Under the pieces are notes generated by a model. That model searched no databases. It worked only from the letters and a program-made list of their open reading frames with translations, and was not told the DNA's origin. A stretch of DNA of 64,000 nt from a virus (Duplodnaviria > Heunggongvirae > Uroviricota > Caudoviricetes), in the IMG/VR virus record IMGVR_UViG_3300014208_000030, positions 104,076 to 168,075 of that record; one strand, written 5' to 3'. Positions 20,705 to 54,300 of this stretch are shown piece by piece. The number at the start of each line of letters is the position of its first letter. Position 1 is the first letter of the stretch. The translations under genes were made by a program, and so were the position numbers.

Positions 20705-20992
20705 TTATGTGTGCATATATAATGAGTCGTAGTCGGCACTGAATACAACACCACAGCGCAGCAGATAGATAACATCATCTTCGGTAGCGACTTCGGCAAA
20801 GTCATCACAGCTGGTTGAGAGATAGATAACATCATGCTCTGCTGCAGTAACCATATCGCCTTTTTCTGGGACTATCTGGTCTAGCTTAATAAACGCACAT
20901 ATATCTGGGCGGTGATGCAGCTTGTCCTCAACTCTATCAAATTCCAGATACTCACTTTCGTGGGTCTCGAATAACGCATATACATCAATCAT
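20705..20992 (-). CDS. hypothetical acidic protein (95 aa)
   Basis: ORF, 4-nt overlap with ligase gene end. Confidence 0.45.
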   Translation of the reverse strand: MIDVYALFETHESEYLEFDRVEDKLHHRPDICAFIKLDQIVPEKGDMVTAAEHDVIYLSTSCDDFAEVATEDDVIYLLRCGVVFSADYDSLYMHT

Positions 20993-27724: not shown

Positions 27725-30160
27725 CTATTTTAAATTGTAGCTTATGACTTTATAATCGAATTGATCTTTTGCATAATATCCTACTCGTTTCTCGAAATGG
27801 TCTAGGGTATGATTTTTGTAAGATTTATACGACATATCGTCCGCCAAATCGAACAGGTTACAAACATATTTCCCATTCCCCTTTCGCAGACCACGCCCAA
27901 CTGACTGCAAAACTTTTATCTTGCTCTTGTATGGTGATGCAAAAATAATATTGTCAATCCGCTTGATCGAAACACCGGTAGAAAATGTGCCATATGATGC
28001 AACTATCGTACAGTCATCTGTAGTCTCGGCAATCTGCCTAACAGCATCTCTGGACTCAACATCAACCTTGCCATGTATAAAGTGACAGTTACCAGCATCT
28101 TTTAGCAAATTGTAGATAGGCAGACCCTGCTTCCCGACGAATGTGAACAGTATTAGCGTATTACCTTTCAGAGAGTTCGCCAATCCGGCAATGAAGGCAT
28201 TTCTGCGCTCACTGGTGCATAGATAATCCATTTCTTGAGCATACGTAGCCTTGCTCCGAGCCATTGCCTTAGCAACTTCCTCGCGGTGCTTAATCAGGAT
28301 GCAGCTGATCTTCAGATTAGCGGCCTGACCGTTATCAATCAGTTCTCTGGTAGTTATAGTCTTAAATGCTTTCCCAAACAAACCCTCGATGACCAACCGG
28401 TTACATTTGCTGTCCTGCAAACTTCCGGTGAACCCGACTCGATAGGCGACATTGTGAGCCCTCTCCATAATATCGGTAATTGACTTAGATTTTGCAGTGT
28501 GGCAATTGCCTACTACAACAACAAAACCTTTTCTACGGACAATAATATTCCCAGACGGCACAGTAACGCAATGCACATTACCAGAATATTGGACGCGCTC
28601 TTTTTGCATCCCTTGCGTCCCTATGATATTGGTCTTCCGGATATATAATCTATGCACATCGGAAAACTTATCGCTCCTGCTATCTATCTGAATAGTTTTT
28701 CTTGCTATATATCCCGCTAGTACAGCAACGGTCTGATAAAAATCAACCGAGCACTCGGATGTGTTCGAATAGTAGTATCGATTCTCGCTGGATATGCTGC
28801 CATCCCAAATAACCATATACTCTATGATTTCTTTCGCCGTTTCGCTAGATAGTGTTGATACGTCAAAAAATGTAGATACATCCTTTGTCGCATAATCAAT
28901 ATTATATATACTAAACCGACGTTTTTCTTTGGTTTTCCCGTATGCTGGTATACTCTTCAGCTCATTATATGAAAACCCACCCTCAGCCATCAGTGCTAGG
29001 AACTCAGTTATTTTTCTTTCTTTAGAAAACTTAAACTGTAATACTTGTTTTCCGCCATCCCGACCAACAATACATCCGTCTGCTTGGAGTGCAATCATAA
29101 GCTTTTGTTTTGGTGTAAGTGGTCCAGAATCGCCTACGGCAAGCCCAGCCCCATATAGATTACATAAGGCATTAAAATTAACTTCTGCCGCAGTTACTTT
29201 TTTGTCAACATAGCCGTGCTTCTGTGTTCGCCTAATTAGCATATCATGGTTTGGAGTTACTAAAAGGTCTATTCTACTATCACTACTTATATGTACTAGC
29301 TCACCATCATAGTGCTTAGTGATATATCTAAGTGGCTTAACGAATGATATATTACCACAATCGTACTGAGCAACATCCGCAACCTCGCTCAATTCATCGA
29401 ATCGAACAAATCCTCTGTTTGTCAATATTTCTGTATCTGGAGAGAAGCACTCATCCTGAACAATCATATCGAACTGCTCATAATATGAGATTGGCATTTT
29501 TGCCATCGATTGGTAGGTAGTGAAGGTCAGTTGCTTATCGGTCTGCTTCTCCTGCCCAGAGTAGATCATGTGGCTTCTACCCTCAACATCCCATCCGCTT
29601 ACGCTAGAATAGTCAATGAAATCGGACTTCATTTGCGCCACCAGACCGACGGTTGGGAATATCAATAATACACGCTTCACTTCACCGATAGCTATCAGAT
29701 ATCTGATTGTGCTAAAGATAATCAGAGATTTCCCCGACGAAGTGGGGCTCTCGATGGTCGCCCTACGGTTGTCTAGAATATGTTTTATGGCGTCGACTTG
29801 GTAGTCATATACTGTGATAGGGTTTCCGGCAGAGTGCAACCGAAGAACATCGGCAATGTATTTTTCGATGATGGCTCTATCGTTGTCCACGACAGGATGT
29901 ACATCCTCATCATACTCTACTGTATAGCCAGCCTGCGCAGCGAATTCGAGAATGTGATAGAACAGGCCAGCATAAATGTTGCGAGTACCGGCGTTGAGGA
30001 GCCTGATTGTGCCATTCCACAACCCATGCTTATATGCCGGTGTAAACTTTGCACCTTCAACATCAAACGTGAAATGCGCAGCCATTTCGACAATAACACA
30101 TTTCTCGGCATCAATGTGCACATATACTTCGTTAAGTTTTCGAATTCGGATATCAGCCAT
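27725..30160 (-). CDS. uvsW: UvsW-like DExH (SF2) DNA helicase interrupted by an in-frame intein
   Basis: Walker A SPTSSGKS; extein blocks recalled to match T4 UvsW (KCNRLVIEGLFGKAFKTITTRELIDNGQAANLKI, TIVASYGTFSTGVSIKRI, VLQSVGRGLRK); motif II reads IVQDE|C...N|CHTAKS. Confidence 0.9.
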   Translation of the reverse strand: MADIRIRKLNEVYVHIDAEKCVIVEMAAHFTFDVEGAKFTPAYKHGLWNGTIRLLNAGTRNIYAGLFYHILEFAAQAGYTVEYDEDVHPVVDNDRAIIEKYIADVLRLHSAGNPITVYDYQVDAIKHILDNRRATIESPTSSGKSLIIFSTIRYLIAIGEVKRVLLIFPTVGLVAQMKSDFIDYSSVSGWDVEGRSHMIYSGQEKQTDKQLTFTTYQSMAKMPISYYEQFDMIVQDECFSPDTEILTNRGFVRFDELSEVADVAQYDCGNISFVKPLRYITKHYDGELVHISSDSRIDLLVTPNHDMLIRRTQKHGYVDKKVTAAEVNFNALCNLYGAGLAVGDSGPLTPKQKLMIALQADGCIVGRDGGKQVLQFKFSKERKITEFLALMAEGGFSYNELKSIPAYGKTKEKRRFSIYNIDYATKDVSTFFDVSTLSSETAKEIIEYMVIWDGSISSENRYYYSNTSECSVDFYQTVAVLAGYIARKTIQIDSRSDKFSDVHRLYIRKTNIIGTQGMQKERVQYSGNVHCVTVPSGNIIVRRKGFVVVVGNCHTAKSKSITDIMERAHNVAYRVGFTGSLQDSKCNRLVIEGLFGKAFKTITTRELIDNGQAANLKISCILIKHREEVAKAMARSKATYAQEMDYLCTSERRNAFIAGLANSLKGNTLILFTFVGKQGLPIYNLLKDAGNCHFIHGKVDVESRDAVRQIAETTDDCTIVASYGTFSTGVSIKRIDNIIFASPYKSKIKVLQSVGRGLRKGNGKYVCNLFDLADDMSYKSYKNHTLDHFEKRVGYYAKDQFDYKVISYNLK
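28505..29449 (-). mobile_element. intein (~315 aa) with LAGLIDADG-like homing endonuclease domain, inserted in helicase motif II (DE^CH)
   Basis: starts CFSPDTEILTNRGFV, ends ...GFVVVVGN followed by extein Cys; internal LYGAGLAVGDSG LAGLIDADG-like motif; extein junction rebuilds DECH. Confidence 0.8.
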
Positions 30161-31765: not shown

Positions 31766-33324
31766 ATGCCTATTTCTGCCCACGAACGCCACCTGATGAA
31801 CGGTGGCCTGTTGCGCCCTGTCTCAAAGTCACTTGCAGACACCACAATTCACCCATTCGCAACCCTTGCCGCAAGACCGACTGCGTCGGAATTCGGAGTT
31901 GGTCATGCGAGTATTGTTACTGCAACATACCGCATCAACTGTTCATCAGATGGCGTTAGCTGGGATAGTCACGGATCGAGTGATTCAATTGCAGATAGGC
32001 CAAGTGCTGCTGCGCTTGGGAAAGGGAGTTGGCAGGTAGGTGATTTATTATACCATTCCGCTGGCGCATCATGGAAAACAGAAAAACTAGCAAAAAGAAC
32101 AAATGTATTAACCCGTTGCCCTACTGGAACTACACAAAACTACACTGGTAAAGGTGGTTTCACATTTAATATTCAGGCTGAGTTGGCTGGCGTTCCAATG
32201 GCGGTGCGTATTGCCATTCCAAATCACACAGCGGGAACACCAACTATTGCTGGTAGTTTTGGTTTTGATACTGCTATGGGTGATATTAATTCTGTGCAAT
32301 CGCGGGGGGCAATGTAGCTACATGGTATCCACTGACATTTGGTGGTGCTGCTTCTGGGACACATGCTGCAAGAGTTAGTGCTACCGAACCATCGTGGTTA
32401 TGGTCTGATTTAATTCCTTGCTCTGCATTACCTCGCGTGGACAGTGAAAGTGGGGCAATTATTCATACTAGGCTTATACAAGGCACAGCTGGTGGTGATG
32501 CCACTTCGTGGTCTGCAATGTGGGCACCTCACGCACTTGTTGCAGATATTATTAAGCATCAATGGAGGGGATGTGCTTCTGCTGCTGCTGTTGACTATGC
32601 AACAACTAACCAAGCAGCTTTTACTACAGGCTCAAACTCTGGAACGGCTAATACAACACACTTACCCTGTATGATTCAATATGTTTCGCTCACACAAGGG
32701 CAGACATTATTAACAATTGGTGATTCCATAACTGCTGGGTTAAATACAGGTACGGGTGGAGCCGCAGCAAATGGTTATGGGTGGACGGCTAAGTTACGTG
32801 ATCTATTATCTACTCCAGAAGTTCCAGTTGAATTATGTAATCTTGGGTATTCTGGGGCAACTATGGCTATGATAACTGGAATATACACTAGAAATGCTAG
32901 TGAACTAAAGAATTGCTTATTACTACATACTATGTATACACCAAATAGTATAGATGTAGTATTGGCCAAAAAAGAGCTAGTAAAATCATTAGCCATTATG
33001 GATAGTATGGGTCATGTTCCTATTTACTGGACAGGGTTGCCTAGAAATGCAACTGTAGCTGGTGGAGGTTTAGGTGGTACTAGTGCAGCTAATCTAGGCG
33101 CGTATGAGGCACAACGAGTAGAATATAATATAGAAATTTTAAGTGCTAATGAAAATGTACTGGATTTATCATCGGCTGTATCTGGCTCAGTTGTTGCTAG
33201 TGGTACAGCGGCAGGCCAAATGGAATATGCGATAGGAAATAGTGATGATGGATTACATCCTAATAATACAGCGCATGATGATATTGCCAATTACGCATAC
33301 CCGTACTTACTTAACAGAATATAA
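31766..33324 (+). CDS. receptor-binding/tail-fibre paralog 2 with C-terminal SGNH/GDSL esterase domain, split by a frameshift in a G6 tract (parts 31766-32317 and 32290-33324)
   Basis: N-terminal 183 aa identical family domain ends at TAG 32315; frame +1 is open from 32290 and encodes LLTIGDSITAGL (GDSL motif) to 33324; adding one G at 32304-32309 (cgcGGGGGGc) fuses the two. Confidence 0.6.
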
Positions 33325-37270: not shown

Positions 37271-38653
37271 ATGCCTATTTCTGCACATGAACGCCACCTG
37301 ATGAACGGTGGCCTGTTGCGCCCTGTCTCAAAGACACTGACCGACACCACAATTCATCCCTTCGCATCCCTTGCCGCTAGACCGACTGCGTCGGAATTCG
37401 GAATTGGGCATGCGAGTATTGTTACTGCAACATACAGAATCAATTGTTCATCGGATGGTGTTAGCTGGGATAGTCACGGGTCGAGTGACAGCATTGCAGA
37501 TAGGCCGAGTGCGGCTGCATTGGGGAAAGGGAGTTGGCAGGTTGGCAATTCGGTTGAATATAGTGACGGAGTTGCTTATGTAAATCCAGCAAACACAAAG
37601 CAACCGACCTTAGTATGGGACGCTGCTAAAGCTAAAGCATCTTCTGGGTTTGGAAATGCTAAAGTTTTATTCCTTGGCGATAGCATTACGGCAGGCGCAT
37701 TTGCAACCAACGGAACGAGTTACGCTAATGCAAAAATAAACGCAACGCCAGCACACATAGCAGCAAAAATGGCAGCAAATGGGTTTGCAACATCAAAAAG
37801 CAGCTGGTTTGGCATGCAAAATCAAGGTACTGTTGCTGCCTTAGCTACATACGACCCACGTTTATCTTTCGGGGCAGATTGGGCTTCTATTAATGGCACA
37901 AAGAGCCTTGGCGGAGATCTTGTAGTAAATGCGGCAAGTGCGTCTACAACGGCTCTTTCGTTTACTCCCACCGAAGCATTCGACACTATCGACATATATT
38001 ATGTAAGAAACACCTCGTACGGTAGTTTTACAGTCGATATTGGAGCAGGAGTAATAGCAACTCAGTCAGCAACAGGATCAACAGGAGTACTTGTTTTAAG
38101 TCTTACTGTTGCTAGTGGACTGCATACTGTTAATATTTCTCACGTTGCCGGGACTGGATCTGCAGCAATAGTTGGGATGAGTTGCTATACAAATAACTCA
38201 GAAGTGCAAGTTATAAATGCTGGCTTGCCTGGCGCACTCGCTACCACACTTTTCACTGGTACTGGATTTTCTCCGGAAGCGGCTATTAATACATTAAACC
38301 CTGATTTAACAGTTATAAATCTTACTACTAATGACGCTCAAGCTTTGATAGCTACAGCAACTGCAATGGCAAGCTTGCAAGTAATAATTGATAGATGCTT
38401 ATTATCAGGAGATGTTGTACTGTGCGTCCCTAATCCAGTCAGTTCGAACGTAGCGACAGCAGAAGAATATTATACTGCTATTCGCTTGCTTGGTTCAGAA
38501 AACTCATTAAATGTTTTTGATTACTCTACTGGTCTTGGCGTTGACTGGGCCGTGGTTAACGCCAATGGACTGATGAAAGATGCTTTACATCCAAAACAAG
38601 CAGGTTATAAGGCAATTGCTGATATAGCTGGGAGCTATGGTGTTTTATATTAA
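37271..38653 (+). CDS. receptor-binding/tail-fibre paralog 3 with SGNH/GDSL esterase domain (460 aa)
   Basis: conserved N-terminal 90 aa; KVLFLGDSITAGAF GDSL motif; C-terminal ...DALHP(K) block as in paralog 2. Confidence 0.7.
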   Translation: MPISAHERHLMNGGLLRPVSKTLTDTTIHPFASLAARPTASEFGIGHASIVTATYRINCSSDGVSWDSHGSSDSIADRPSAAALGKGSWQVGNSVEYSDGVAYVNPANTKQPTLVWDAAKAKASSGFGNAKVLFLGDSITAGAFATNGTSYANAKINATPAHIAAKMAANGFATSKSSWFGMQNQGTVAALATYDPRLSFGADWASINGTKSLGGDLVVNAASASTTALSFTPTEAFDTIDIYYVRNTSYGSFTVDIGAGVIATQSATGSTGVLVLSLTVASGLHTVNISHVAGTGSAAIVGMSCYTNNSEVQVINAGLPGALATTLFTGTGFSPEAAINTLNPDLTVINLTTNDAQALIATATAMASLQVIIDRCLLSGDVVLCVPNPVSSNVATAEEYYTAIRLLGSENSLNVFDYSTGLGVDWAVVNANGLMKDALHPKQAGYKAIADIAGSYGVLY

Positions 38654-42000: not shown

Positions 42001-42501
42001 ATGAATAATGAATACACATTTTTTTGGCGAGGCGTGTTCTCGCAGTGGAGCCCATCAAGATTCGTCTTTGAGGCGAAAGAATTTAACTGCGCCGAACAGG
42101 CAATGATGTACCATAAGGCAGTACTCTTTGGTGACTTCAATACTGCTGGCAAAATCATGGCAACACCATCCCCAAAAGACCAACAGGCACTTGGCCGCGA
42201 AGTAGCCAATTTCTGCCAAGCTACTTGGAATGCATTTGCCAGACAGCTAGTTGTCGACATCAGCGTTGCCAAATTTTCACAGAACAAAGGCTTGTGGGAA
42301 ATACTGGATGCTACCGGTAACACCACCTTGGTAGAAGCATCTCCAAAAGACAAAATCTGGGGAATTGGGTTGGCAGAAGAAGTTGCGAAGAAAACTCCTG
42401 CAGATCAGTGGGTCGGTACTAACTGGCTTGGTCTGGCGTTGACGGAAGCTAGAGAGATCATTCGCGAAAACAATTCGCAACAAAGCGATGGTATGAGCTA
42501 A
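42001..42501 (+). CDS. NADAR-domain (YbiA/DUF1768) protein
   Basis: FFWRGVFSQWSPS.F.......F...EQAMMYHKA.LFGD......I......P...K.LGREV..F....W.......V.......KF.QN..LWE.L..TG...LVEASP.D.IWGIGL matches the NADAR signature. Confidence 0.7.
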   Translation: MNNEYTFFWRGVFSQWSPSRFVFEAKEFNCAEQAMMYHKAVLFGDFNTAGKIMATPSPKDQQALGREVANFCQATWNAFARQLVVDISVAKFSQNKGLWEILDATGNTTLVEASPKDKIWGIGLAEEVAKKTPADQWVGTNWLGLALTEAREIIRENNSQQSDGMS

Positions 42502-43439
42502 TGGCGGATATCCATTACGGACGAAAACGTAAGGGCATGGTGAGAGAGCTTAATAGCAAGCTCTCTGCTTGGATCGATACTATCGATGATGAGGATGTCG
42601 TAGCTGCTGTTAAGCGTGATACTATCGTTACCGGTGGTTCCATCGCATCAATGTTGCTTGGCGAACCTATCAACGATTTTGATATCTATTTTCGCACTAA
42701 AGAGACAACATTGTTAGTTGCTCATTATTATGTCCGAAAATTCAATGATGCAATAGCGGAGAAGGCTGTGGTAATGCATAAGCCTTATGTTACCGAAAAA
42801 CCTATTATCAACTGCAAGGGTGTCGAGGAAGATCGGGTACTGATCTATATCAAGTCCGCTGGTGTTGCTGCCGAAGAGCAAAATACATACCAGTATTTTG
42901 AGATGCAGCCAAAGGAAATGGCAGAGGAATTTGCCAAATCGTTGGAAGAAAATAAAGCATCTGGTAAGGCACCATATCGCCCAGTGTTTCTGTCGGCTAA
43001 TGCAATAACATTGAGCAATGATGTTCAGCTAATTATCCGATTCTTTGGCGAGCCAGATAAGATTCATGATAACTTTGACTTCATGCATGCAATGTCCTAT
43101 TACGATTACGCTGCGCGAAACTTAGTGTTGCCAGCATCTGCATTAGAATGTTTGCTATCGCGCACTCTGGTATATGCTGGGTCACTATATCCAATGTGCT
43201 CAATATTCCGAATGAGGAAGTTTCTCGACCGAGGGTGGCGAATTAGTGCTGGTGAAATATTGAAGATCATGTGGCAAATCTCTGAACTTGATTTAAAAGA
43301 TCAAGCTGTTCTCCATGAACAGCTCACCGGTGTCGACGCAGCATACATGCACGAATTGCTCGATGCACTGAAGGATGTTGATGCAGATAAAATAAACTCT
43401 ACCTACGTGGCAGAGATAATTGACCGTATATTTAATTGA
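42501..43439 (+). CDS. Pol-beta superfamily nucleotidyltransferase-domain protein (312 aa)
   Basis: TGGSIASMLLGEPINDFDIYF = [GS]-x10-D-x-D NTase motif; no further assignment possible by eye. Confidence 0.5.
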   Translation: MADIHYGRKRKGMVRELNSKLSAWIDTIDDEDVVAAVKRDTIVTGGSIASMLLGEPINDFDIYFRTKETTLLVAHYYVRKFNDAIAEKAVVMHKPYVTEKPIINCKGVEEDRVLIYIKSAGVAAEEQNTYQYFEMQPKEMAEEFAKSLEENKASGKAPYRPVFLSANAITLSNDVQLIIRFFGEPDKIHDNFDFMHAMSYYDYAARNLVLPASALECLLSRTLVYAGSLYPMCSIFRMRKFLDRGWRISAGEILKIMWQISELDLKDQAVLHEQLTGVDAAYMHELLDALKDVDADKINSTYVAEIIDRIFN

Positions 43440-43446
43440 GGGGAAT

Positions 43447-43620
43447 ATGAAGATTTATTTCAAGTTTATTGGTCTGCTGTTGTTTTTGTTCGTCGATTGC
43501 GGCCTACTTATGCCATATCTATTCTCTCAGGAATCTGATATGGCGGTGATGCTTGGGGTGGTAGTTGCTATAGTCAACCCAGTAATTGTTTATTTGTATA
43601 TTAAATGGAGTCTTAAGTGA
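43447..43620 (+). CDS. small two-TM membrane protein (57 aa; start moved to MKIYFKF)
   Basis: SD gagggg before ATG 43447; overlaps SPFH gene start. Confidence 0.4.
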   Translation: MKIYFKFIGLLLFLFVDCGLLMPYLFSQESDMAVMLGVVVAIVNPVIVYLYIKWSLK

Positions 43621-44468
43621 AAAAAATATTATTAGTGATTATGGTAACGTTTCTGGCAGCATGCTCTTATGTAGAACCAGGATACGTCGGCATTAAAGTA
43701 AACAAATTGGGTGGCGACAAGGGCGTCAATTCTCAAGAGTTGGGCGTAGGCAGATATTGGATTGGTATGAACGAAGAGCTGTACACATTCCCAACATTTT
43801 CACAGAGTCAGATGTGGACTAAGGCTAAGACAGACGGCTCACCCAATGACGATTCATTCACATTTCAGACGAGAGAAGGCTTAAGCGTTAATGCTGATCT
43901 TGGTATCACATATGCAATTGATCCATCTAAGGTAACCGTTATCTTCCAGAAATATCGGAAAGGTATCGATGAAATTACCCATGTATACTTACGCAATATG
44001 GTTCGGGATGCTATTGTTACCGAGGCATCCAGCAGACCGATTGAGAGTGTGTATGGTGCCGGTAAAGCTGAGCTGATCGAATCAGTCCAGCGCCGAGTTG
44101 TCGCCGAAACACAATCTATCGGAATCATCATTGAGAAGATTTATCTCGTGGGTGATCTTAGACTTCCCGATGTAGTTACTGACGCTATCAATGCTAAGAT
44201 TGGCGCAACCCAGAAAGCAGCCCAGCGCGAAAACGAGGTTGCTCAATCTAGAGCCGAGGCAGAAAAGAAAATTGCAGAAGCCAAAGGTGAGGCAGACTCT
44301 AAACTCTTAGTGGCCGAAGCAGAAGCCAAAGCGATTAAGATCAAGGGTGATGCATTAAGCCAAAATCCTAAACTTGTAGAGCTCAGTGCTGTCGAAAAGT
44401 GGAATGGTGTATTACCAACATATATGATGGGGAACTCAACTCCTTTCGTAAATATCAAGCAGCAGTAA
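43617..44468 (+). CDS. SPFH/band-7 (stomatin/prohibitin-like) domain lipoprotein (GTG start)
   Basis: signal + lipobox LAACS; SPFH core YVGIKVNKLGG...; C-terminal Ala/Glu/Lys coiled coil. Confidence 0.65.
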   Translation: MKKILLVIMVTFLAACSYVEPGYVGIKVNKLGGDKGVNSQELGVGRYWIGMNEELYTFPTFSQSQMWTKAKTDGSPNDDSFTFQTREGLSVNADLGITYAIDPSKVTVIFQKYRKGIDEITHVYLRNMVRDAIVTEASSRPIESVYGAGKAELIESVQRRVVAETQSIGIIIEKIYLVGDLRLPDVVTDAINAKIGATQKAAQRENEVAQSRAEAEKKIAEAKGEADSKLLVAEAEAKAIKIKGDALSQNPKLVELSAVEKWNGVLPTYMMGNSTPFVNIKQQ

Positions 44469-46223: not shown

Positions 46224-46580
46224 ATGGAAACCACACAAGAAAAAACATTTGAGATACTGGATGTTGGTAATTCTCAGCACAGGCTTACTATTACGCCAAG
46301 CAGAATTACTATTAAATTCAAAAAAGATACACTGCGCGAAGAACGAGACGAAGTCATCAGTTTCTTTATCGCAGTCTCACAGGATGAAGATATGCAAAAC
46401 TGTGAGTGCTCATTCCGAGGTTCGGCGACAGTAACCGGTACCGGTAAGCTGCATATTATTATGCACGATGGTAGTCATGGTCGCAGTACGATGAACTATC
46501 ACTATTACTATGATAATGTTAATAAAAAATTAGACGATAGTCTGTTATTTAAAAATAAGAAAGCGAGGATTGCAGCATGA
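46224..46580 (+). CDS. hypothetical protein (118 aa)
   Basis: ORF, 4-nt overlap with next gene. Confidence 0.45.
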   Translation: METTQEKTFEILDVGNSQHRLTITPSRITIKFKKDTLREERDEVISFFIAVSQDEDMQNCECSFRGSATVTGTGKLHIIMHDGSHGRSTMNYHYYYDNVNKKLDDSLLFKNKKARIAA

Positions 46581-47848
46581 TTACAATTAATTACCCTACC
46601 AACAGTGACTTAGGCACCGATGAAGTAGTAACATTCCACACATTTTCTGGTGGCGAAGAGCACGTTAACTTGAAGCGCAGAGAGTTCGACACAGAACCAA
46701 CTATCATCATTATTGCTCAGATACTAAATTCTGCAGATGTAATGCGCCTCCTACTAACAACAGATGCGCTACGTCGCCTATACACCAACGATATTGCTCT
46801 GGTTATGCCATATCTGCCATATGCCCGTCAGGATAGAGCCTGTGTTGAAGGAGATGCGTTCAGTTTGCAAGTATTTGCTAAACTGATTAATGCACAAGAT
46901 TATGATCAGGTGACCGTAGTAGATGCTCATAGTAGTGTTGCTGGCGATCTGTTCCGCAACTTCAATAGTATCCCGCAGGCGTCAGTGCTAGCAAATGTGC
47001 GTATTGGAATTGATGAGCGCATTGCCTTTATTGTTGCGCCCGATGCTGGTGCTGCCAAAAAGGCGGTTGATTGGCAGACACAGTGGAACAATATCCCATC
47101 AAATTATGCACCAACATTCTTCCTACAAGCAACCAAGAAACGGGACGAAACTGGAAACATAGTGGCGACAGAACTTAATGGTGTTAGCGAAGGCGCACTG
47201 AATGGTGCAACATGCCTGATTGTCGATGACATAATTGACGGCGGTCGCACCTACATTGAGCTGGCTAAAGTTTTGAAATGGGCGGGTGCCGGTAATATCT
47301 ACCTATATGCAACGCATGGCATTTTTAGCCGAGGCATCCAAGTACTCCTAGATGCCGGTATTACGAAAGTATTCACTACCGACTCATTCCCAGAAAAGGA
47401 TGATGGGCGAGTTATTGTTAAACGATTTTCAACTGAGAGAAGTAACTATATTATGCAATCAACAAAGAAAAAAGTATTTCTGGGTGGTACCTGTAATGGC
47501 AGCACATGGCGAGATACACTGATCCCACTACTCAATATCGATTTCTTCAATCCGGTCGTTGCCGATTGGACAGAGGCAGCTTACGAAGAAGAGCTCAAAC
47601 AAAGGGAAGAGTGTGACTTCTGTCTATATGTAATCACGGCAGAATCGAGCAGCATATATTCCATTGCCGAAGTAGTTGATGGCAGCAATAAACGCCCAAC
47701 AAAGACGGTATTCTGCTTTCTTGAAGATATGTATACCGACCACGAAGTTAGCGCACTTGGTAGAGTTGCTAAGATGGTAGCAGAAAATGGCGGACAGTCT
47801 TTCAATACATTAGGTAGTGTCGCAAGATACTTAAACGGAGCAGCGTAA
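46577..47848 (+). CDS. ribose-phosphate pyrophosphokinase (Prs)-like protein with extra C-terminal Rossmann-like domain; candidate ADPR-pyrophosphate synthetase (Adps)
   Basis: Prs motifs LVMPYLPYARQDR and CLIVDDIIDGGRT; 423 aa, C-terminal ~120 aa (VFLGGTCNGSTW...) unlike canonical Prs. Confidence 0.7.
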   Translation: MITINYPTNSDLGTDEVVTFHTFSGGEEHVNLKRREFDTEPTIIIIAQILNSADVMRLLLTTDALRRLYTNDIALVMPYLPYARQDRACVEGDAFSLQVFAKLINAQDYDQVTVVDAHSSVAGDLFRNFNSIPQASVLANVRIGIDERIAFIVAPDAGAAKKAVDWQTQWNNIPSNYAPTFFLQATKKRDETGNIVATELNGVSEGALNGATCLIVDDIIDGGRTYIELAKVLKWAGAGNIYLYATHGIFSRGIQVLLDAGITKVFTTDSFPEKDDGRVIVKRFSTERSNYIMQSTKKKVFLGGTCNGSTWRDTLIPLLNIDFFNPVVADWTEAAYEEELKQREECDFCLYVITAESSSIYSIAEVVDGSNKRPTKTVFCFLEDMYTDHEVSALGRVAKMVAENGGQSFNTLGSVARYLNGAA

Positions 47849-47850
47849 TC

Positions 47851-49653
47851 ATGCAATCAACAGCAATAAACCAAAAAGACGGCTATAAAATTGGTCACAA
47901 ACCATTTTACCCAGACCTGACAGAAGAAATTTATGGCAATCTTACTGCACGGTCGGGTCGACTGTCAAATATCAAGGGCACCAAAGGCGTCTATTTTGTC
48001 GGTTTACAGGCTCTATTAGCCGAATATTTTGTCAAAGAATGGAATGAAACATTTTTCCAGCGACCAAAAGAAGAAGTACTCGAAAAATATCAACGTCGGG
48101 TATCGAATTTCTTTGGGTATGAGATCGATATTTCGCACATTGCCGCACTACATGATTTGGGTTTCTTGCCAATACAGGTGAAGGCGATCCCAGAAGGCTC
48201 TTTCGTTCCATATGGTGTCCCAATGGTCACCTACAAAAACACGGTCAAGAACTTTGGCTGGGTTGCGCAGATGTGTGAAACCGTATTGTCATCAGAAACA
48301 TGGCAGGGGATCACATCGGCAACGACCTATATGGAGTTCAAAAAACTCTTTACCAAATTTGCCCTGAAAACAGGCACCCATTTGGCGTTTGTCCCGTACC
48401 AAGGTCATGACTTCAGTTTCCGAGGAATGGCTGGCAGACACGCTGCAGCGAAGTCTGGTTATGCAATATTAGCCTGTGGTAGCTTCGGAACCGATTGTTT
48501 ACCGGCAATTGACTTGGCGGAAGACTATTATTATGCAGATGTTACAAAAGAGATTGTCGGGCTGTCAATTACGGGAACTGAACACTCGGTAGCATCGGCA
48601 AACATCATCACTATTGAGGAGGCTTTCCGCAAAACTGGTGAGTGGGGTGGGCTTAGGTTTGAAGACCTTATTGATGATAGTTCGGATACAGATTATAAAA
48701 ACATCGCCGAAACAGCATTTATCCATCGTGTCATATCACAGGTTGCCCCAAGCGGCAAGGTAGCGTTAGTGTGTGACACATATAATTTTTGGAACGTAGT
48801 GACAAACAGCTTGCCAATACTCAAGGGAGAAATTATGGCAAGAGATGGTCAGGTGGTTATTCGCCCGGATTCTGGCGACCCAGTTCGCATGATCTGCGGT
48901 GGCGATTACGAAGTTATACGCCATGCTGATAATATAGAACAAGCAAAGCGGTATGCCTTAGATTCATTGGAAGAGTATGTTCGTGAAGATGCCGGTCATG
49001 GCGAATGTGGAATGATAGATTACGGTGACATCTTCAACTGGAATGGAAAATACTACCGAGCTGAGGCCGAATTTGAGTGGAACCGGTACGGCAAACAGTA
49101 CTACTTCATTGACGGCAGCAAGTTGCTATCATTTGAAGAAGTTGAGCTAAGTGCTGACCAGAAAGGTCTGATCGAATGTTTGTGGGAAACTTTTGGCGGC
49201 ACATTGACCGAAACAGGCCACAGAATGCTCGATTCACATATAGGTGCTATCTACGGTGATTCAATCACATATGAACGCGCCACTGAGATTCTGACGCGAC
49301 TAGAGGCCAAAAACTTTGCCAGTGGTAACATAGTTCTAGGCTTGGGCTCCTATTTGTTTCAGCTAGTGACGCGGGACACGCACGGTATGGCAATTAAAGG
49401 CACCCACATTGTAGTGGATGGCAAAGACGTACCGATTTTCAAAGACCCAATCACTGATGACGGTACTAAAAAGTCCGCAAAAGGATATATGGTCGTGGAG
49501 ACCGATGAGAATGGCGAATATTGCATGCGCGACATGGTATCCAGAAAAGAAGAGAAATATGGTGCATTACGAGTTGTATTCCGTGATGGCATACTGTATA
49601 ATGAAACAACCTTAGCAGAAACAAGAAAATTAACCGAGTTGAAACTATCATGA
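47851..49653 (+). CDS. nicotinamide phosphoribosyltransferase (Nampt/NadV)-like protein; candidate Namat
   Basis: N-terminal DGYKIGHKPFYP resembles the Nampt DSYK.tHy block; length 600 aa; immediately follows the Prs-like gene with 2-nt spacing. Confidence 0.65.
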   Translation: MQSTAINQKDGYKIGHKPFYPDLTEEIYGNLTARSGRLSNIKGTKGVYFVGLQALLAEYFVKEWNETFFQRPKEEVLEKYQRRVSNFFGYEIDISHIAALHDLGFLPIQVKAIPEGSFVPYGVPMVTYKNTVKNFGWVAQMCETVLSSETWQGITSATTYMEFKKLFTKFALKTGTHLAFVPYQGHDFSFRGMAGRHAAAKSGYAILACGSFGTDCLPAIDLAEDYYYADVTKEIVGLSITGTEHSVASANIITIEEAFRKTGEWGGLRFEDLIDDSSDTDYKNIAETAFIHRVISQVAPSGKVALVCDTYNFWNVVTNSLPILKGEIMARDGQVVIRPDSGDPVRMICGGDYEVIRHADNIEQAKRYALDSLEEYVREDAGHGECGMIDYGDIFNWNGKYYRAEAEFEWNRYGKQYYFIDGSKLLSFEEVELSADQKGLIECLWETFGGTLTETGHRMLDSHIGAIYGDSITYERATEILTRLEAKNFASGNIVLGLGSYLFQLVTRDTHGMAIKGTHIVVDGKDVPIFKDPITDDGTKKSAKGYMVVETDENGEYCMRDMVSRKEEKYGALRVVFRDGILYNETTLAETRKLTELKLS

Positions 49654-50312: not shown

Positions 50313-50340
50313 TTGACACATTTTAAAAATGCTGTATACT
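50313..50340 (+). promoter_or_regulatory. sigma70 promoter aaagcTTGACA-16-TATACT
   Basis: consensus hexamers; upstream of tRNA cluster. Confidence 0.6.
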
Positions 50341-50606: not shown

Positions 50607-50680
50607 GCGGGTATAGCAAAACGGTTATGCAACTGGCTTCCACCCAGTTCACGGGAGTTCGACCCTCCCTACCCGCTCCA
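50607..50680 (+). tRNA. tRNA-Gly (anticodon TCC)
   Basis: hand-folded cloverleaf: acceptor gcgggta/tacccgc, anticodon stem actgg/ccagt loop cTTCCAc, T-arm gggag-ttcgacc-ctccc, 3' CCA encoded. Confidence 0.8.
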
Positions 50681-50702
50681 AATAACATAGGGAAGCATAA
50701 TA

Positions 50703-50936
50703 ATGGCAGTAGAAGTGAGAGTATTTGAACCTGATCCGGCACACATCTGCATTAGGAATGCTGGGAAGTGGTCACTGAGTATGAATCCAAATATGTTTGG
50801 TCGCGTAACTCATATTAGATATTTGAATGAGTTTGAGTGTGACCTCATCAATGGAGCAATAAAAGCCGCGCAGCGTGCAATGGATATAGCATCTGGAGTA
50901 CCTTCTGAAGCTGATCCTAACCGGATAGATAATTAA
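50703..50936 (+). CDS. hypothetical small protein between tRNA genes (77 aa)
   Basis: ORF only. Confidence 0.3.
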   Translation: MAVEVRVFEPDPAHICIRNAGKWSLSMNPNMFGRVTHIRYLNEFECDLINGAIKAAQRAMDIASGVPSEADPNRIDN

Positions 50937-50945
50937 AAAGTTTTT

Positions 50946-51021
50946 GCGCCAGTAGCTCAATGGTAGAGCGTTCCCCTCATAAGGGATTGGTTTTTGGTTC
51001 GAATCCAAACTCGGCGCACCA
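50946..51021 (+). tRNA. tRNA-Met/Ile2-like (anticodon CAT), acceptor stem with one bulged C
   Basis: D-arm gctc-aatggta-gagc, anticodon loop cuCAUaa, T-arm tttgg-ttcgaat-ccaaa, CCA encoded; acceptor gcgccag pairs with ct(c)ggcgc only if one C is bulged. Confidence 0.55.
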
Positions 51022-51027
51022 AATAAT

Positions 51028-51101
51028 AAGTCATTAGCTCAACGATAGAGCGGCTAGGTGCACTAGTAGATGGTGGGTTTAACTCCCATCATGGCTTGCC
51101 A
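51028..51101 (+). tRNA. tRNA-like element (anticodon arm unresolved)
   Basis: acceptor aagtcat/atggctt + g + CCA, D-arm gctc-aacgata-gagc, T-arm-like gtggg-tttaact-cccat; central region ctaggtgcactag is palindromic and gives no canonical 7-nt loop. Confidence 0.35.
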
Positions 51102-51426
51102 AATTAAGACTAAGTAGAAGCCTTTCCCTACGCACTAAGGAGAGGCAACAAATAATACGATTAGCTTGTCAGACTTAGAACTGTATATTCAACTCTCGAA
51201 CATGGTTGCTTCTAGTCGTATTTTTTGTTAGTGAATGCGTAGGCTGATACGCTGAGATTTGTCTCTCGTCGCAATCCATTTAATTGTGGCTCTAGCAACA
51301 GACATTAACTGAAATGATAAGCATGGGATCAGTACATGCCACCAACTTCAAATACCGTAAGAGGATAGTATTGTGTCTAAATTTAAAATAAGAGGACGGT
51401 GCAATTTTCATTAGTATATTTAACTA

Positions 51427-51960
51427 ATGGAGGTAGCAATGTTAATCGTAACACAAAGAAGCTTCACAACAAAGCACGATCAGGTTATTGGGTATTTTCA
51501 GGACATTCGTGCCATCTACGACCACTTTAGTGGTTTGTTTGGCAAATATGGTTTAGAGAACAGATTCTCCCATAACCAATTTGAGGTCGTAGTAACCGGT
51601 AGATACTGGTTATCTTGGCGAGAAGATATTACCGGCACCGAGCATGCAATGGTTATTACTAACCGGCAGGGTATCCGGTATAGCAAAGAGTTTGTTGCTG
51701 GGATATTTGCAAAGTACCGTAAAACGAAGTTCCAGTGGGGCTGGATACGTGGTACGAAAAGAAATTACCGGTGCTGCTATCGTAGTATAAGAACAACCCA
51801 AGAAATAAGACTTTCAGTGGGTGTTCTGAAAGAAGAAGGTGAACCAGTTTGGCGAACATCTAGAAATTATCATAACTTACCCAACAAATGGGATGAGATA
51901 CAGCATTTGGATGTTTGCAACCGGAACTGGAAGCGGTTTAGAAAAACACAATATAAATAG
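51427..51960 (+). CDS. hypothetical protein (177 aa)
   Basis: ORF; SD ggagg. Confidence 0.45.
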   Translation: MEVAMLIVTQRSFTTKHDQVIGYFQDIRAIYDHFSGLFGKYGLENRFSHNQFEVVVTGRYWLSWREDITGTEHAMVITNRQGIRYSKEFVAGIFAKYRKTKFQWGWIRGTKRNYRCCYRSIRTTQEIRLSVGVLKEEGEPVWRTSRNYHNLPNKWDEIQHLDVCNRNWKRFRKTQYK

Positions 51961-51979
51961 TATATAATGAGGCAGTGAA

Positions 51980-52168
51980 ATGAAAACCCTTTTCGTATGG
52001 ATGAAGTATTCTTGGCAAATCGTGGGACAATCCCTCGCAACTAAGAAGCATCGCAGACCAATAGTAAATGAGGCAGGATTCGTGGCACCGATTATCGTAC
52101 CACTTGGGTATATTGGTGTTATTTTGCAGATAGTTGTTGCGGCATATGTATTAAAAGTTATTTTTTGA
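51980..52168 (+). CDS. hypothetical small membrane protein (62 aa)
   Basis: hydrophobic C-terminus. Confidence 0.35.
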   Translation: MKTLFVWMKYSWQIVGQSLATKKHRRPIVNEAGFVAPIIVPLGYIGVILQIVVAAYVLKVIF

Positions 52169-52177
52169 AAATAAAGC

Positions 52178-52205
52178 TTGACAAGATGTAAAAAGTGTGT
52201 ATAAT
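52178..52205 (+). promoter_or_regulatory. sigma70 promoter aaagcTTGACA-16-TATAAT
   Basis: perfect hexamers upstream of tRNA-Ser. Confidence 0.65.
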
Positions 52206-52283
52206 GGTTGAATAGTTTGCATCACATATAAAGACGGCAATCTTTGTGGTGCGAGCCTTAGTTAAAAAATGATTTGATACGTG

Positions 52284-52291
52284 TATAAATA
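52284..52291 (+). promoter_or_regulatory. late promoter TATAAATA upstream of tRNA-Ser
   Basis: gtgTATAAATAaaag 12 nt before tRNA 5' end. Confidence 0.5.
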
Positions 52292-52302
52292 AAAGTAGAT
52301 AT

Positions 52303-52392
52303 GGAAATGTGGCAGAGCGGTTTATTGCACTGGTCTTGAAAACCAGCGGGGCTTAATCGCCTCCCAGAGTTCGAATCTCTGCGTTTCCGCCA
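52303..52392 (+). tRNA. tRNA-Ser (anticodon TGA), long variable arm
   Basis: acceptor ggaaatg/cgtttcc, anticodon stem ctggt/accag loop cuUGAaa, variable arm, T-arm cagag-ttcgaat-ctctg, CCA; similar in layout to E. coli tRNA-Ser. Confidence 0.8.
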
Positions 52393-52450
52393 TACAATGG
52401 CACGGTTTGTCAGTTTCTAGGTCTAAAAATGAGAAACTTCCACGAATAAT

Positions 52451-52525
52451 TGCGGTGTACATCAGAGGTAGATGAACTGGCTCATAACCAGAAAGACGGG
52501 AGTTCGAGTCTCTCCACCGCTACCA
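52451..52525 (+). tRNA. tRNA (anticodon CAT; Met or Ile-lysidine), U1-U72 mismatch
   Basis: acceptor tgcggtg/caccgct, D-arm catc-agaggta-gatg, anticodon loop cuCAUaa, T-arm gggag-ttcgagt-ctctc, CCA encoded. Confidence 0.6.
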
Positions 52526-52544
52526 GTTTTAAAGTAGTAAATTT

Positions 52545-52621
52545 CGGAATGTATTTCAGTCTGGTAGAATGAACCGTTTGGGGCGGTTCGGTCGTGGGTT
52601 CAAATCCCTCCATTCCGACCA
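52545..52621 (+). tRNA. tRNA-Pro (anticodon TGG)
   Basis: acceptor cggaatg/cattccg perfect, anticodon stem aaccg/cggtt loop uuUGGgg (G37), T-arm gtggg-ttcaaat-ccctc, CCA. Confidence 0.75.
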
Positions 52622-52639
52622 AACAAGGGATATCACGCT

Positions 52640-52735
52640 TAGTTACGTGCCATTTGGCATCGCGCACCCAGATATCCCACCAAATAAGTGTTATCACGCC
52701 TATTGCCAAATGGCTCGCGCACCATGATAGCACGA
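52640..52735. repeat. two ~35-bp direct repeats each containing palindrome tgccatttggca / tgccaaatggc + cgcgcac
   Basis: gatatcacgcttagttacgtgccatttggcatcgcgcaccc vs gttatcacgcctattgccaaatggctcgcgcacc. Confidence 0.6.
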
Positions 52736-53042
52736 TTAACACCAGCCATTACTCTTGGGCGTTATAATTAAGAGAGGTCTTAAGCTCATACCAGAATGAG
52801 AATTGGTACATATCGCATACCAGACAAACATCCGTGTAGAGGAGAGGTTACAAAATCGATATCGTGCCTGTATGTGTACGTAAACATCCCACTGGCTAGC
52901 AAATAGGGCTCTTGGGTGAAGCATACTAGACGGAGAATAAACAGCCTAGATGGGGGAGCGTTGGTGACGTTTAGCCCATCACTCTTATTTTAAAATAAGA
53001 GATAAATATAGCAAAATGAGTGAAGTATTTTCTCCAGCTAAG

Positions 53043-53114
53043 GCACAAGGTGTGCCGCCATCCTGTTAAGATGTGTGAGTTTGGTCCGATTCCAAAAGCT
53101 GGAGAAAATACTTT
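53043..53114 (+). tRNA. tRNA-Asn-like (anticodon GTT) embedded in a 16-bp extended inverted repeat; no CCA
   Basis: acceptor tccagct/agctgga, D-arm ggca-caaggtg-tgcc, anticodon loop cuGUUaa, T-arm tttgg-tccgatt-ccaaa; flanks gaagtattttctccagc / gctggagaaaatactt extend pairing. Confidence 0.5.
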
Positions 53115-53126
53115 ATATACAAAGAG

Positions 53127-54002
53127 TTACGGGTTAATATAATTCTCAACGAGTTTCACTAATTCTGAGTACTCGATACTAGATATTGTTTTCTTTTTAT
53201 TATTTTCTGTGTGCTGCATCAATTCACAATTTAGTGGGTGTGTGATATAAAATGCATCATAGTTATATTTTAGTGCATCATGCACGGATACTCTATGGTC
53301 TCTCGATATCCCATCTGGGTTCCACTTTTGGCCTTTGAAATTATTCGGCGAGAACCACCCGAATTTATCTATTAAGGTCAGATCGAACAGGTCTGGATAG
53401 TGGTACACATTGAATGTAAACTTATATCGTTGCTTTTCTGCTGGTGAATATATGGTAACGCACTTTGTACAGTATTTCGTCGCCCTCCTTTGGGATATGA
53501 TAATGCCACAGTGCTGACATTTGCACATATATAACTTAGAAAATACACCAGATGCGGTTTTGTTAGTTTCTCGGTTTCGTACTGGACTGCGGCGTTGCGC
53601 TACTCGCTTACGTACAGGCTTTGGTAATTTAGCTTTGCGTTCTGGCTTGCTCTTGATTTTGTGTGCAGATTTATGATAGGCCGATACGCTTTTAGATACT
53701 TTATCCTTGTGGGCATCAGTAATAACATAGCCATGTTTTATTCTGTCGGTATTATTAAATGTAGCTGCACATGATGCATTACAAAATTTTCGATTAGAAT
53801 CTAATGGCATATTACAATGAATGCAGTATTTAATATTAGATTGAAATCTAGGAAGCCGATCGACCGATATCTCTTTCTTAGTAATAATACAGCAGCATCT
53901 TAGTTGTGGAAGTTTACCAGCTGATATGCCGTGAATACGAGAATGCCCATTAAGAGAGCGAATTGATGGAAATATTTTACTACAGTGTTCGCATTTGAAC
54001 AT
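53127..54002 (-). CDS. HNH endonuclease with N-terminal C2H2 zinc finger (homing-endonuclease-like) in the tRNA region
   Basis: FKCEHCSKIFPSIRSLNGHSRIH = C2H2; C-terminal GISRDHRVSVHDA...HPLNCELMQHTENNKK = HNH; basic KxK-rich linker. Confidence 0.7.
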   Translation of the reverse strand: MFKCEHCSKIFPSIRSLNGHSRIHGISAGKLPQLRCCCIITKKEISVDRLPRFQSNIKYCIHCNMPLDSNRKFCNASCAATFNNTDRIKHGYVITDAHKDKVSKSVSAYHKSAHKIKSKPERKAKLPKPVRKRVAQRRSPVRNRETNKTASGVFSKLYMCKCQHCGIIISQRRATKYCTKCVTIYSPAEKQRYKFTFNVYHYPDLFDLTLIDKFGWFSPNNFKGQKWNPDGISRDHRVSVHDALKYNYDAFYITHPLNCELMQHTENNKKKTISSIEYSELVKLVENYINP

Positions 54003-54108
54003 TGGATACCCGATATAAATAATATTGTGTAGGACAGTTCAGTTACCCGATACTGAATTGATTAATATTGGTCGTATTAATCTAACTGCATATATTTATA
54101 TAAATATG

Positions 54109-54137
54109 TTGACAATATATCGAATATGGTATATACT
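54109..54137 (+). promoter_or_regulatory. sigma70 promoter TTGACA-17-TATACT (overlapping TATAAATA boxes on both strands at 54095-54106)
   Basis: seen in sequence. Confidence 0.55.
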
Positions 54138-54203
54138 CTTAAAAGTTAACAATATACCGGACAAGCATGCGAAAGCTGCTCAAATCGTTCCGGTTTTTAT
54201 TAT

Positions 54204-54284
54204 TGTCATGTAGCTCAGTGGTAGAGCAGTGGCGTAGTCGCACTACGCTTCCGTACGGTGGGTCAACACCACCCATGACAGCCC
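54204..54284 (+). tRNA. tRNA-like element (perfect acceptor stem tgtcatg/catgaca, canonical D-arm), anticodon arm atypical
   Basis: D-arm gctc-agtggta-gagc; T-arm ggtgg-gtcaaca-ccacc; 29 nt between D- and T-arms form gcgtag-tcgca-ctacgc hairpin; anticodon not assignable by hand. Confidence 0.4.
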
Positions 54285-54300
54285 AATTTAGCGAAATAAC

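Follow-up and report, generated by a model that had tools for sequence, protein, structure and literature searches.

Does a pair of phage genes resembling ribose-phosphate pyrophosphokinase (Prs) and nicotinamide phosphoribosyltransferase (Nampt) supply nicotinamide mononucleotide (NMN) by classical salvage, or does it rebuild NAD+ from ADP-ribose (ADPR) and nicotinamide, and what does the additional domain at the end of its first protein contribute? The question is raised by a locus in IMG/VR virus record IMGVR_UViG_3300014208_000030 (Caudoviricetes), of which positions 104,076 to 168,075, a stretch of 64,000 nucleotides (nt) referred to here as the window, were analyzed. NAD+ depletion is among the commonest antiphage strategies, which phages counter mainly through NAD+ reconstitution pathway 1 (NARP1). 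A sequence-only reading of the window had named both salvage and NARP1 as candidates, and the sequence-level tests described below (selectivity clamp, trees, diagnostic residues, profile scores, and gene adjacency) favor NARP1 over a classical Prs/NadV route. The locus is probably a NARP1-type operon in which a gene of the Pfam family PF15891 was inserted and later fused, with PF15891 enzymes assisting NARP1. The core pair appears to be another member of the known NARP1 system, and the fusion appears to be a new architecture.

By homology to validated enzymes, the N-terminal ~285 amino acids (aa) of the first protein (P1) would act as the ADPR-pyrophosphate synthetase Adps, using ATP to pyrophosphorylate ADPR, a product of SIR2-, TIR-, and SEFIR-type NADase defenses, into ADPR pyrophosphate (ADPR-PP) with release of AMP. 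The second protein (P2) would act as Namat, exchanging the pyrophosphate of ADPR-PP for nicotinamide and forming NAD+ directly. The rebuilt NAD+ would sustain a phage whose own DNA ligase needs NAD+.

The Gene Pair and Its Phage

The adjoining, co-oriented open reading frames (ORFs) that had been read from the letters alone are present on the plus strand as P1 (46577-47848, 423 aa) and P2 (47851-49653, 600 aa), spaced by 2 nt (TAA-TC-ATG). The ATG of P1 shares bases with the stop codon of an upstream 118-aa ORF (ATGA), and a Shine-Dalgarno sequence, GAGGA, lies upstream. P1 holds the motifs PYLPYARQDR and DDIIDGGRT. In Pfam, P1 matches the N- and C-terminal domains of Prs (aa 18-274) and P2 matches NAPRTase and NAMPT_N; the pair also matches phrog_619 and phrog_448 among the PHROGs and TIGR01251 and PRK09198 in NCBIfam. 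Across these collections the Prs-family (P1) and Nampt/NAPRTase (P2) matches reach an E-value of 1e-166. The operon comprises the following features, all on the plus strand.

46577..47848, plus strand: predicted adps-PF15891 fusion gene (P1, 423 aa), from the ORF and profile matches
46577..47422, plus strand: putative Adps (ADPR-pyrophosphate synthetase-like) domain, P1 aa 1 to ~282, from residue conservation, profiles, and tree
47423..47452, plus strand: linker derived from the old adps 3′ end, stop codon, and adps-namat spacer, from comparison with a relative
47453..47848, plus strand: PF15891 (nucleoside 2′-deoxyribosyltransferase-fold) module, P1 aa 293-423, from Pfam, alignments, and an AlphaFold2 (AF2) model
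47453..47464, plus strand: direct-repeat copy 1, 12 nt, ATGCAATCAACA (MQST), at the left edge of the inserted module, from a repeat search
47851..47862, plus strand: direct-repeat copy 2, 12 nt, the first four namat codons, from the same repeat search
47851..49653, plus strand: predicted namat (P2, 600 aa), from profiles, motif, and tree

The same DNA, fused frame included, occurs at 100% nucleotide identity in three other assemblies, namely ENA ERZ27249449 (168,088 bp) and Logan SRR6484324 and SRR18595301; thus, the fused frame is no assembly error. The longest contig recorded with the exact P1 protein measures 168,353 bp. The phage is an uncultured T4-like myovirus encoding UvsW, UvsY, gp32, T4 baseplate proteins, and seven tRNAs. 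A DNA-level search of 50,697 phage genomes found no close relative, the best result being a 40-nt match, and the phage is therefore without a cultured relative.

Adps-Type Features of the First Protein

The NARP1 systems of phages Bas63, SpbetaL1, Fado, and ICP1 have the same adps-then-namat order as the window, with the genes adjacent and co-oriented (bioRxiv 10.1101/2024.02.11.579819; PMC12774641; PMC13586617). Also shared with them are the Adps-type catalytic, acceptor, and pyrophosphate (PP) loop residues of P1, the Namat-like selectivity clamp of P2 (a loop Arg and, for the most part, the GS-aromatic...TRD helix), a large Namat insertion like that of Bas63 gp80, and the placement of both proteins in phage NARP1 groups. 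Unlike known NARP1, the window Adps carries a C-terminal PF15891 domain, which is found in no other homolog examined, and the window differs further in Leu at two positions of the clamp helix and in Ile instead of Cys at PP-loop position 220.

The comparison of the N-terminal part of P1 with Prs and Adps supports its assignment as Adps-type rather than as a housekeeping Prs. Against the broad Prs model TIGR01251 (cutoff 113 bits), P1 scores 145.5 bits, in the range of the Adps of Bas63 (138.5), SpbetaL1 (106), and ICP1 (98) and far from E. coli Prs (423). This is the only Prs model that P1 passes, as is also true of the validated Bas63 Adps. All other Prs equivalog and subfamily cutoffs in NCBIfam (296-536 bits) are missed by P1 at 76-124 bits, E. 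coli Prs scoring 423-532. In a neighbor-joining (NJ) analysis of 79 phage proteins and 10 Prs, 100/100 bootstraps separate Prs from the phage proteins and place P1 among the latter. The branches closest to P1 are the relative P0002, L143, and L099/100, which mirrors the Namat tree, and the congruence of the Adps and Namat trees suggests that adps and namat have traveled together.

In the ICP1 Adps structures of September 2026, the PP loop is remodeled, the donor adenine is capped by an aromatic lid, and the Prs α11-12 module has been lost (PMC13586617). At six of the seven positions that discriminate Adps from Prs, P1 is Adps-like (C89, I195, I219, G222, R224, and Y226). Measured from the TH motif, the Prs-like part of P1 continues for ~45 aa, compared with a median of 43 in Adps and 67 in Prs, and the α11-12 tail is missing. 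The ICP1 Adps has its catalytic Lys at K185 (K162 in SpbetaL1) and its acceptor residues at R87, H121, D161, D212, D213, and F18′ (PMC13586617), and P1 holds F23, R84, H118, D156, the catalytic K187, D217/D218, the PP loop I220-T225, and Y226. Since Prs conserves these catalytic and acceptor residues too, they speak for competence and not for specificity.

Gene adjacency points the same way. It has been reported that 97% of Adps-clade genes neighbor Namat, that bacterial prs genes rarely do, and that the Nampts of NARP2 occur without Adps (Osterman et al., bioRxiv 10.1101/2024.02.11.579819). Among 80 related Namat loci collected here, adps stands alongside Namat in 74.

Namat-Type Features of the Second Protein

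P2 was aligned with the validated or Adps-adjacent Namats of Bas63 (gp80), SpbetaL1, ICP1, and 5P1b and with the NadVs of phi-pp2 (KVP40 species) and Aeh1. In the SpbetaL1 Namat structure, selectivity rests on a clamp of two parts (PMC12774641). The first is a helix motif (SCH), GS-X-phi-X-phi-X-phi-TRD, in which aromatic residues at X positions 3 and 7 stack the adenine of ADPR-PP or NAD+; the second is a variable β1-β2 loop (SCL) that provides an Arg, Lys, or Tyr, and is recognized as a long loop with R, K, or Y at its third position (PMC12774641). The SCH motif of P2 is GSYLFQLVTRD (aa 499-509), compared with GS[YF][TS]YQYxTRD in Namats and GGGLLQxxDRD in NadVs. The G, S, Y3, F5, Q6, V8, T, R, and D of P2 fit the Namat signature, positions 4 and 7 are both Leu, and the motif is clearly not of the NadV type. 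In the alignment, the P2 loop S35-G36-R37 pairs with T38-S39-R40 of SpbetaL1, making R37 the equivalent of R40, and the length of the loop is like that of Bas63 and 5P1b and greater than that of the NadVs. The catalytic core of the SpbetaL1 Namat comprises F189, R192, D215, the catalytic His, R306, and D308 (PMC12774641); in P2, F188, R191, D215, H245, R338, and D340 are invariant in the alignment.

The best solved relative of P2 is the SpbetaL1 Namat (9W5X/9W5W), at 398 bits compared with ~157 bits for human and mammalian Nampt, and its identity to the NadVs of phi-pp2 and Aeh1 is 27-30%. In a distance-based NJ tree of 87 sequences, with these two NadVs as the only NARP2 references, P2 is sister to L143 and L099-101, deep within the Adps-linked clade and near ICP1 and 5P1b; Bas63 and SpbetaL1 bracket that clade and the NadVs form a distant, long-branch outgroup. 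The SCL loop, the tree, and the best solved relative thus all fall on the Namat side, supporting P2 as a NARP1-type Namat and not a NadV. The firm clustering with housekeeping Prs and canonical NadV that had been named as grounds for abandoning the NARP1 proposal is not seen, and P1 and P2 group instead with phage NARP1 proteins.

The sequence-only reading had regarded P2, like P1, as carrying an extra domain, and for P2 this does not hold. Its additional 100 aa consist of two insertions, at ~aa 252-290 and 352-436, and since the larger is common to the validated Bas63 Namat gp80 (593 aa), as well as to 5P1b, the additional length is a normal feature of the subclade.

NARP2, known from Vibrio phage KVP40, uses Nampt/NadV and Nmnat; like the window locus, it belongs to a large T4-like phage, includes a Nampt-family enzyme, and serves to restore NAD+. 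In the KVP40-type relatives examined (phi-pp2 and Aeh1), the NadV is of the NARP2 type and has no Adps next to it; the window phage is likewise a T4-like myovirus. Unlike NARP2, P2 lacks both GGGLLQxxDRD and the short SCL-equivalent loop, stands beside Adps, and has no Nmnat found with it in the window. NARP3 (PnuC and NadR) was also weighed and dismissed as unrelated.

The PF15891 Domain of P1

The C-terminal extension of ~120 aa that had been noticed on P1 is real, and its earlier label, Rossmann-like, proved too loose. Pfam identifies it as PF15891 (Nuc_deoxyri_tr2) at aa 297-381, with an E-value of 2.5e-10 and above the gathering score. The AF2 model of the module has a predicted local distance difference test (pLDDT) score of 91, and according to this model the C-terminal ~130 aa of P1 is a domain of nucleoside 2′-deoxyribosyltransferase (NDT)-like fold. 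The fold matches those of NDT-fold N-glycosidases (NDT, Rcl/DNPH1, MilB, YtoQ, and BDI_0649/4mcj) at an identity of only 10-20%, and TIR domains and the retron-Eco1 effector are related to this group. Sequence and profile searches of the domain against the sequences of the Protein Data Bank gave nothing meaningful, and only the fold search matched. The YtoQ literature offers no functional clue for PF15891. No PHROG covers the domain. To our knowledge, no member of PF15891 has been characterized.

There are 4,248 database homologs of P1 aa ~293-423, and those listed are essentially all free-standing PF15891 proteins of ~130 aa at 55-67% identity. The domain is scarce in cultured phages, occurring in 21 genomes, mostly of Lak megaphages and jumbo phages. 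Invariant in the subfamily are the FLGGT loop, a W/R and an E/R pair, a Tyr, the Glu in YSIAE, and NKRP. The fused copy keeps FLGGT, W311/R312, E339/R343, Y351, E365, and NKRP, and retains 16/16 invariant columns. Of 78 window-type PF15891 ORFs, about 20 reach 246-275 aa (for example, L233:7810-8580 and L217:7980-8807); these long forms contain an internal insertion and are extended at the C-terminus by ~110 aa without a Pfam match.

The origin of the fusion can be read against the nearest relative, L001:10001-11314 (JGI 3300037810 Ga0376277_0000679, 169.5 kb), whose Adps of 286 aa is 74% identical to that of the window. There, the adps stop codon is followed by a 16-nt spacer with GAGG and by the namat ATG. 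The window sequence 5′ of codon M293 is homologous to this spacer, and a 1-nt loss in a T-run shifts the old adps stop out of frame. The module opens with the 12-mer whose only two occurrences in the 64 kb are the repeat copies listed above, and homology to the relative's namat resumes after copy 2. The simplest reading is insertion of a free-standing PF15891 gene behind namat codon 4, which left 12 nt duplicated, with the 1-nt deletion fusing it to adps at a later time. The module is taken to be a gain because the sister lineages L143 and L099 are without it. A different fusion occurs in P0052 (440 aa, ENA metagenome), an Adps-like protein with an N-terminal GNAT acetyltransferase (PF13673, E 2e-5).

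PF15891 Genes in Other NARP1 Operons

A narrow hidden Markov model of close relatives of the window domain gave 0/80 loci and an apparent lack of any association between PF15891 and NARP1, which was overturned by clustering of the inserts between adps and namat and by Pfam. The gap between these genes exceeds 300 nt in 38/78 loci. Clustering of the inserts yielded a Macro (Adpp-like) family in 7/80 loci and a 159-aa family that Pfam identifies as PF15891 (E 2e-36), referred to here as subfamily 2. A subfamily-2 gene occurs in 12/80 NARP1 loci (15%), six of them with the gene at most 250 nt from namat, and this frequency is close to the 15% reported for Adpp (bioRxiv 10.64898/2026.01.28.702374).

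In the reciprocal direction, adps and/or namat lie within 8 kb in 69/80 subfamily-2 loci, with both present in 49; these 80 loci are viral contigs picked only for their subfamily-2 gene and are those most similar to a NARP1-derived query. Among subfamily-2 loci of at least 14 kb, 41/48 are linked to NARP1, as are 17 of the 22 subfamily-2 clusters that remain after de-replication at 70% identity. The subfamily-2 genes are always co-oriented with their adps or namat neighbors, in the order adps-namat-PF15891 in 25 loci and adps-PF15891-namat in 19, and lie at most 100 nt from adps or namat in 24. The Namat motif is present in 62/64 of the Namat-like genes beside them. Subfamily 2 is thus a recurrent third gene of NARP1 operons. 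Its members are marked by the pattern IFLAGSIEMG...FNPRR...SPISLLELG over ~159 aa, with examples at L169:6874-7353, L150, L162, L141, and L264-L341.

Homology between the two PF15891 subfamilies extends through the entire domain (hhalign E 2e-5), and the two conserved Glu residues fall in matching columns. In the hhalign register, S357 and S359 of the window match the T/S and S/A of subfamily 2, which weakly hints at convergence. Lak megaphages carry one gene of each subfamily ~110 nt apart (Prevotella phage Lak-A1, MK250016.1, 506139-507020). The 78 window-type loci show mixed contexts (terminase, portal, and GIY-YIG genes) and no NAD signal. On the metagenomic large-phage contigs L013, L016, and L017, window-type PF15891 lies within a few kb of a PARP-like gene and an RNA ligase, and a 313-aa NUDIX protein, a PncB-type NAPRTase, and a weak CTP_transf_like match are also nearby; these contexts hint at a looser association with NAD and ADPR metabolism, three being too few to count.

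A search of one literature library found no paper linking the PF15891 fold to NARP1, and the fold is absent from the NARP1-neighbor tables of the aRES study.

Possible Roles of PF15891 in NARP1

Two accessory enzymes of NARP1 have been described. NARP1-AP operons encode Adpp, a Macro-domain ADPR-1″-phosphatase (bioRxiv 10.64898/2026.01.28.702374), and extended NARP1 operons encode RyDEP, a RyR-domain glycosidase of cyclic ADPR (cADPR; bioRxiv 10.64898/2026.05.28.727677). These 2026 studies extend NARP1 to defense products that the two core enzymes cannot use: both accessory enzymes turn alternative NAD+-derived molecules into linear ADPR for Adps (bioRxiv 10.64898/2026.01.28.702374; 10.64898/2026.05.28.727677). 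The window resembles these operons in having an additional enzyme gene between or beside adps and namat, and differs from them in that its additional fold is NDT/N-glycosidase-like, not Macro or RyR, and is physically fused to Adps.

The recurrence of subfamily 2 as a co-oriented third gene suggests that PF15891 enzymes assist NARP1, most likely as an N-glycosidase or transglycosidase. Three routes may be envisaged. As a feeder, the enzyme would convert N-glycosidic ADPR derivatives to usable ADPR, as Adpp and RyDEP do for their substrates. Alternatively, base exchange with nicotinamide would lead straight to NAD+; NDT enzymes carry out such exchange, and CD38 and TIR enzymes provide a precedent. 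Finally, the enzyme might clear AMP, an inhibitory by-product that leaves Adps with ~35% of its activity at 500 μM (PMC13586617).

A more specific proposal can be put forward only tentatively, namely that PF15891 constitutes a third class of NARP1 accessory enzyme beside Adpp and RyDEP, and that the window fusion is an independent second recruitment, a “Rosetta stone.” Its substrates would be, for example, His-ADPR or N-linked cADPR isomers, converted to ADPR or, by base exchange, to NAD+, with relief of the AMP inhibition of Adps as the other option. A third accessory family of this kind could bring to light an additional level of the NAD+ arms race or a further defense product.

Alternative Explanations

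The observations that weigh against the preferred reading are given here along with the alternative explanations. The one that survives best, although it is considered rather unlikely, is that a NARP1 core has picked up an irrelevant PF15891 passenger, whether a selfish or unrelated nucleotide-metabolism gene in a permissive hot spot, a neutral frameshift fusion, or a decaying domain. The adps-namat junction is often invaded, as the long gaps above attest, and also receives HNH genes and ORFs of unknown function (for example in L012). In no set examined does the fusion occur more than once, and it arose by a frameshift; window-type PF15891 genes, heterogeneous in context, are near NARP1 in 0/78 loci elsewhere. 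In the fused copy, D369, an Asp in 120/120 relatives, is replaced by Gly, and M357S, G359S, Q390E, K392S, and S393A affect positions that are 91-99% conserved; with near-invariant sites altered in this way, the copy could be decaying. The former namat Shine-Dalgarno sequence upstream of the module is weakened from GAGG to GAGA. Beyond the window, NARP1 is missing from the neighborhood of distant subfamily-2 members in five isolate phages, and validated NARP1 systems work without PF15891. Against a mere passenger stand the tight and specific linkage of an independent PF15891 subfamily to NARP1, with 19 loci sharing the order in which the PF15891 gene lies between adps and namat, and the state of the fused copy itself, whose ORF is full-length with no internal stop, whose invariant core is preserved down to the two aligned Glu residues, and whose domain folds confidently in the AF2 model. 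If the domain were irrelevant, the locus would simply add to the known NARP1 operons, here in a T4-like phage that is uncultured and whose ligase needs NAD+.

Classical salvage is quite improbable. It would require P1 to be a true phosphoribosyl pyrophosphate (PRPP) synthetase and P2 a true Nampt/NadV forming NMN, with an Nmnat of phage or host completing NAD+ in a NARP2-like manner; as a corollary, the fused domain, if nucleoside monophosphate (NMP) glycosidase-like, would supply ribose-5-phosphate to Prs, for which such an enzyme is a logical fusion partner. In its favor, P1 passes the general model TIGR01251, keeps the Prs-identical PYxxYARQDR motif, and is Prs-like at I220, where Adps usually has Cys. 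P1 is also slightly more Prs-like overall (29% identity to Prs, versus 24-25% for the validated Adps) and falls within the strict SpbetaL1-Bas63 bracket in only 45/100 bootstraps, the Prs outgroup consisting of 10 Gammaproteobacteria of 80-99% identity. Among 74 Adps-linked Namats with the 11-residue SCH motif, position 4 is T/S in all 74, which makes the Leu of P2 unique; position 7 is occupied by Y/F/H in 59 of them and by C/M/L in 14, and the Leu of P2 is therefore a minority state with precedent. Namat enzymes, moreover, keep residual PRPP activity (PMC12774641). A Pfam scan of window ORFs 75 aa or longer, taken from a greedy, non-overlapping ORF set that missed at least one real gene (NADAR) and within 64 kb of a genome of ~168 kb, found no Nmnat (CTP_transf_like), Macro, or RyR domain. 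Salvage is countered by P1 profile scores that lie 2- to 6-fold below every Prs equivalog cutoff and resemble those of validated Adps, by the grouping of P1 with Namat-linked phage proteins in every bootstrap, by the Adps-type residues and the absent Prs C-terminal module, by the Namat-like clamp of P2 in place of the NadV motif, by the genomic neighborhoods of Adps, prs, and NARP2 Nampts described above, and by the lack of an Nmnat among the ORFs scanned.

That frameshift fusion or motif changes have left an inactive remnant heading for loss is very improbable: although the closest relative's namat has lost ~457 internal codons (codons 46-502, leaving aa 1-45 and 503-597), so that NARP1 is being lost in the sister lineage and is dispensable there, and although the SCH motif and the PF15891 domain of the window deviate, neither window ORF is truncated and no catalytic residue is missing, several sequencing runs yield the identical sequence, and the C-terminal addition need not disrupt Adps assembly, since the C-terminal domains of the ICP1 Adps hexamer lie on its outer rim (PMC13586617).

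Other Features of the Window

Three further features bear on the preferred NARP1 reading or on the extent of the operon.

20989-22845, minus strand: NAD+-dependent DNA ligase LigA, the phage's own NAD+ requirement, from domain matches
42001-42498, plus strand: NADAR gene, ADPR-related, 4 kb upstream of the operon, from PF08719
45684..45712, plus strand: sigma-70-like promoter candidate, the best match upstream of the unit, TTGACA-17-TACAAT (11/12), from a consensus match only

The ligase and the NADAR protein had both been named in the sequence-only reading, and both were recovered, the former with its adenylation, OB, HhH, and BRCT domains and the latter with an E-value of 8e-45. The promoter and terminator scans were at chance level overall and serve only to suggest the boundaries of the unit. 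A strong promoter-like site lies downstream of the operon at 50313-50340, and seven tRNA genes (Gly, Met x2, Ser, Pro, Asn, and Ala) are clustered just 3′ of the operon at 50607-54285 on the plus strand.

Directly 3′ of the NADAR gene is a 312-aa protein of unknown function (42501-43439, PHROG 4400), followed by an SPFH/Band_7 protein. The label “Gad2” (PF26128) on 42501-43439 comes from a precomputed annotation only, and the Pfam run performed here gave no match. The region 42001-44468 on the plus strand, 3-5 kb upstream of the NARP1 operon, may be an anti-defense cluster. Elsewhere, an ArdA-like antirestriction protein (738-1247, plus strand) adjoins a DUF7227 protein (1316-1993, plus strand, E 2e-98).

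A 616-aa protein at 7038-8888 on the minus strand consists of five or six tandem modules of ~60 aa, HGDRYDYSKVDY...IC..HG.F.Q....H..G.GC..C, with a distinct C-terminal region; the modules have weak matches to DUF723 and treble-clef zinc fingers. Three plus-strand ORFs (25662-27593, 31766-32317, and 37271-38653) share a near-identical N-terminus of ~90 aa (MPISAHERHLMNGGLLRPVSK...), at least the last of them ending with a GDSL/SGNH hydrolase domain, and may be paralogous tail-fiber or depolymerase-like cassettes. Finally, the UvsW-type helicase (811 aa, 27725-30160, minus strand) has an insertion of ~300 aa between its ResIII/DEAD part and Helicase_C (...QDE/CFSPDTEIL...VVVGN/CHTAKS...), which looks like an intein in the DExH motif.

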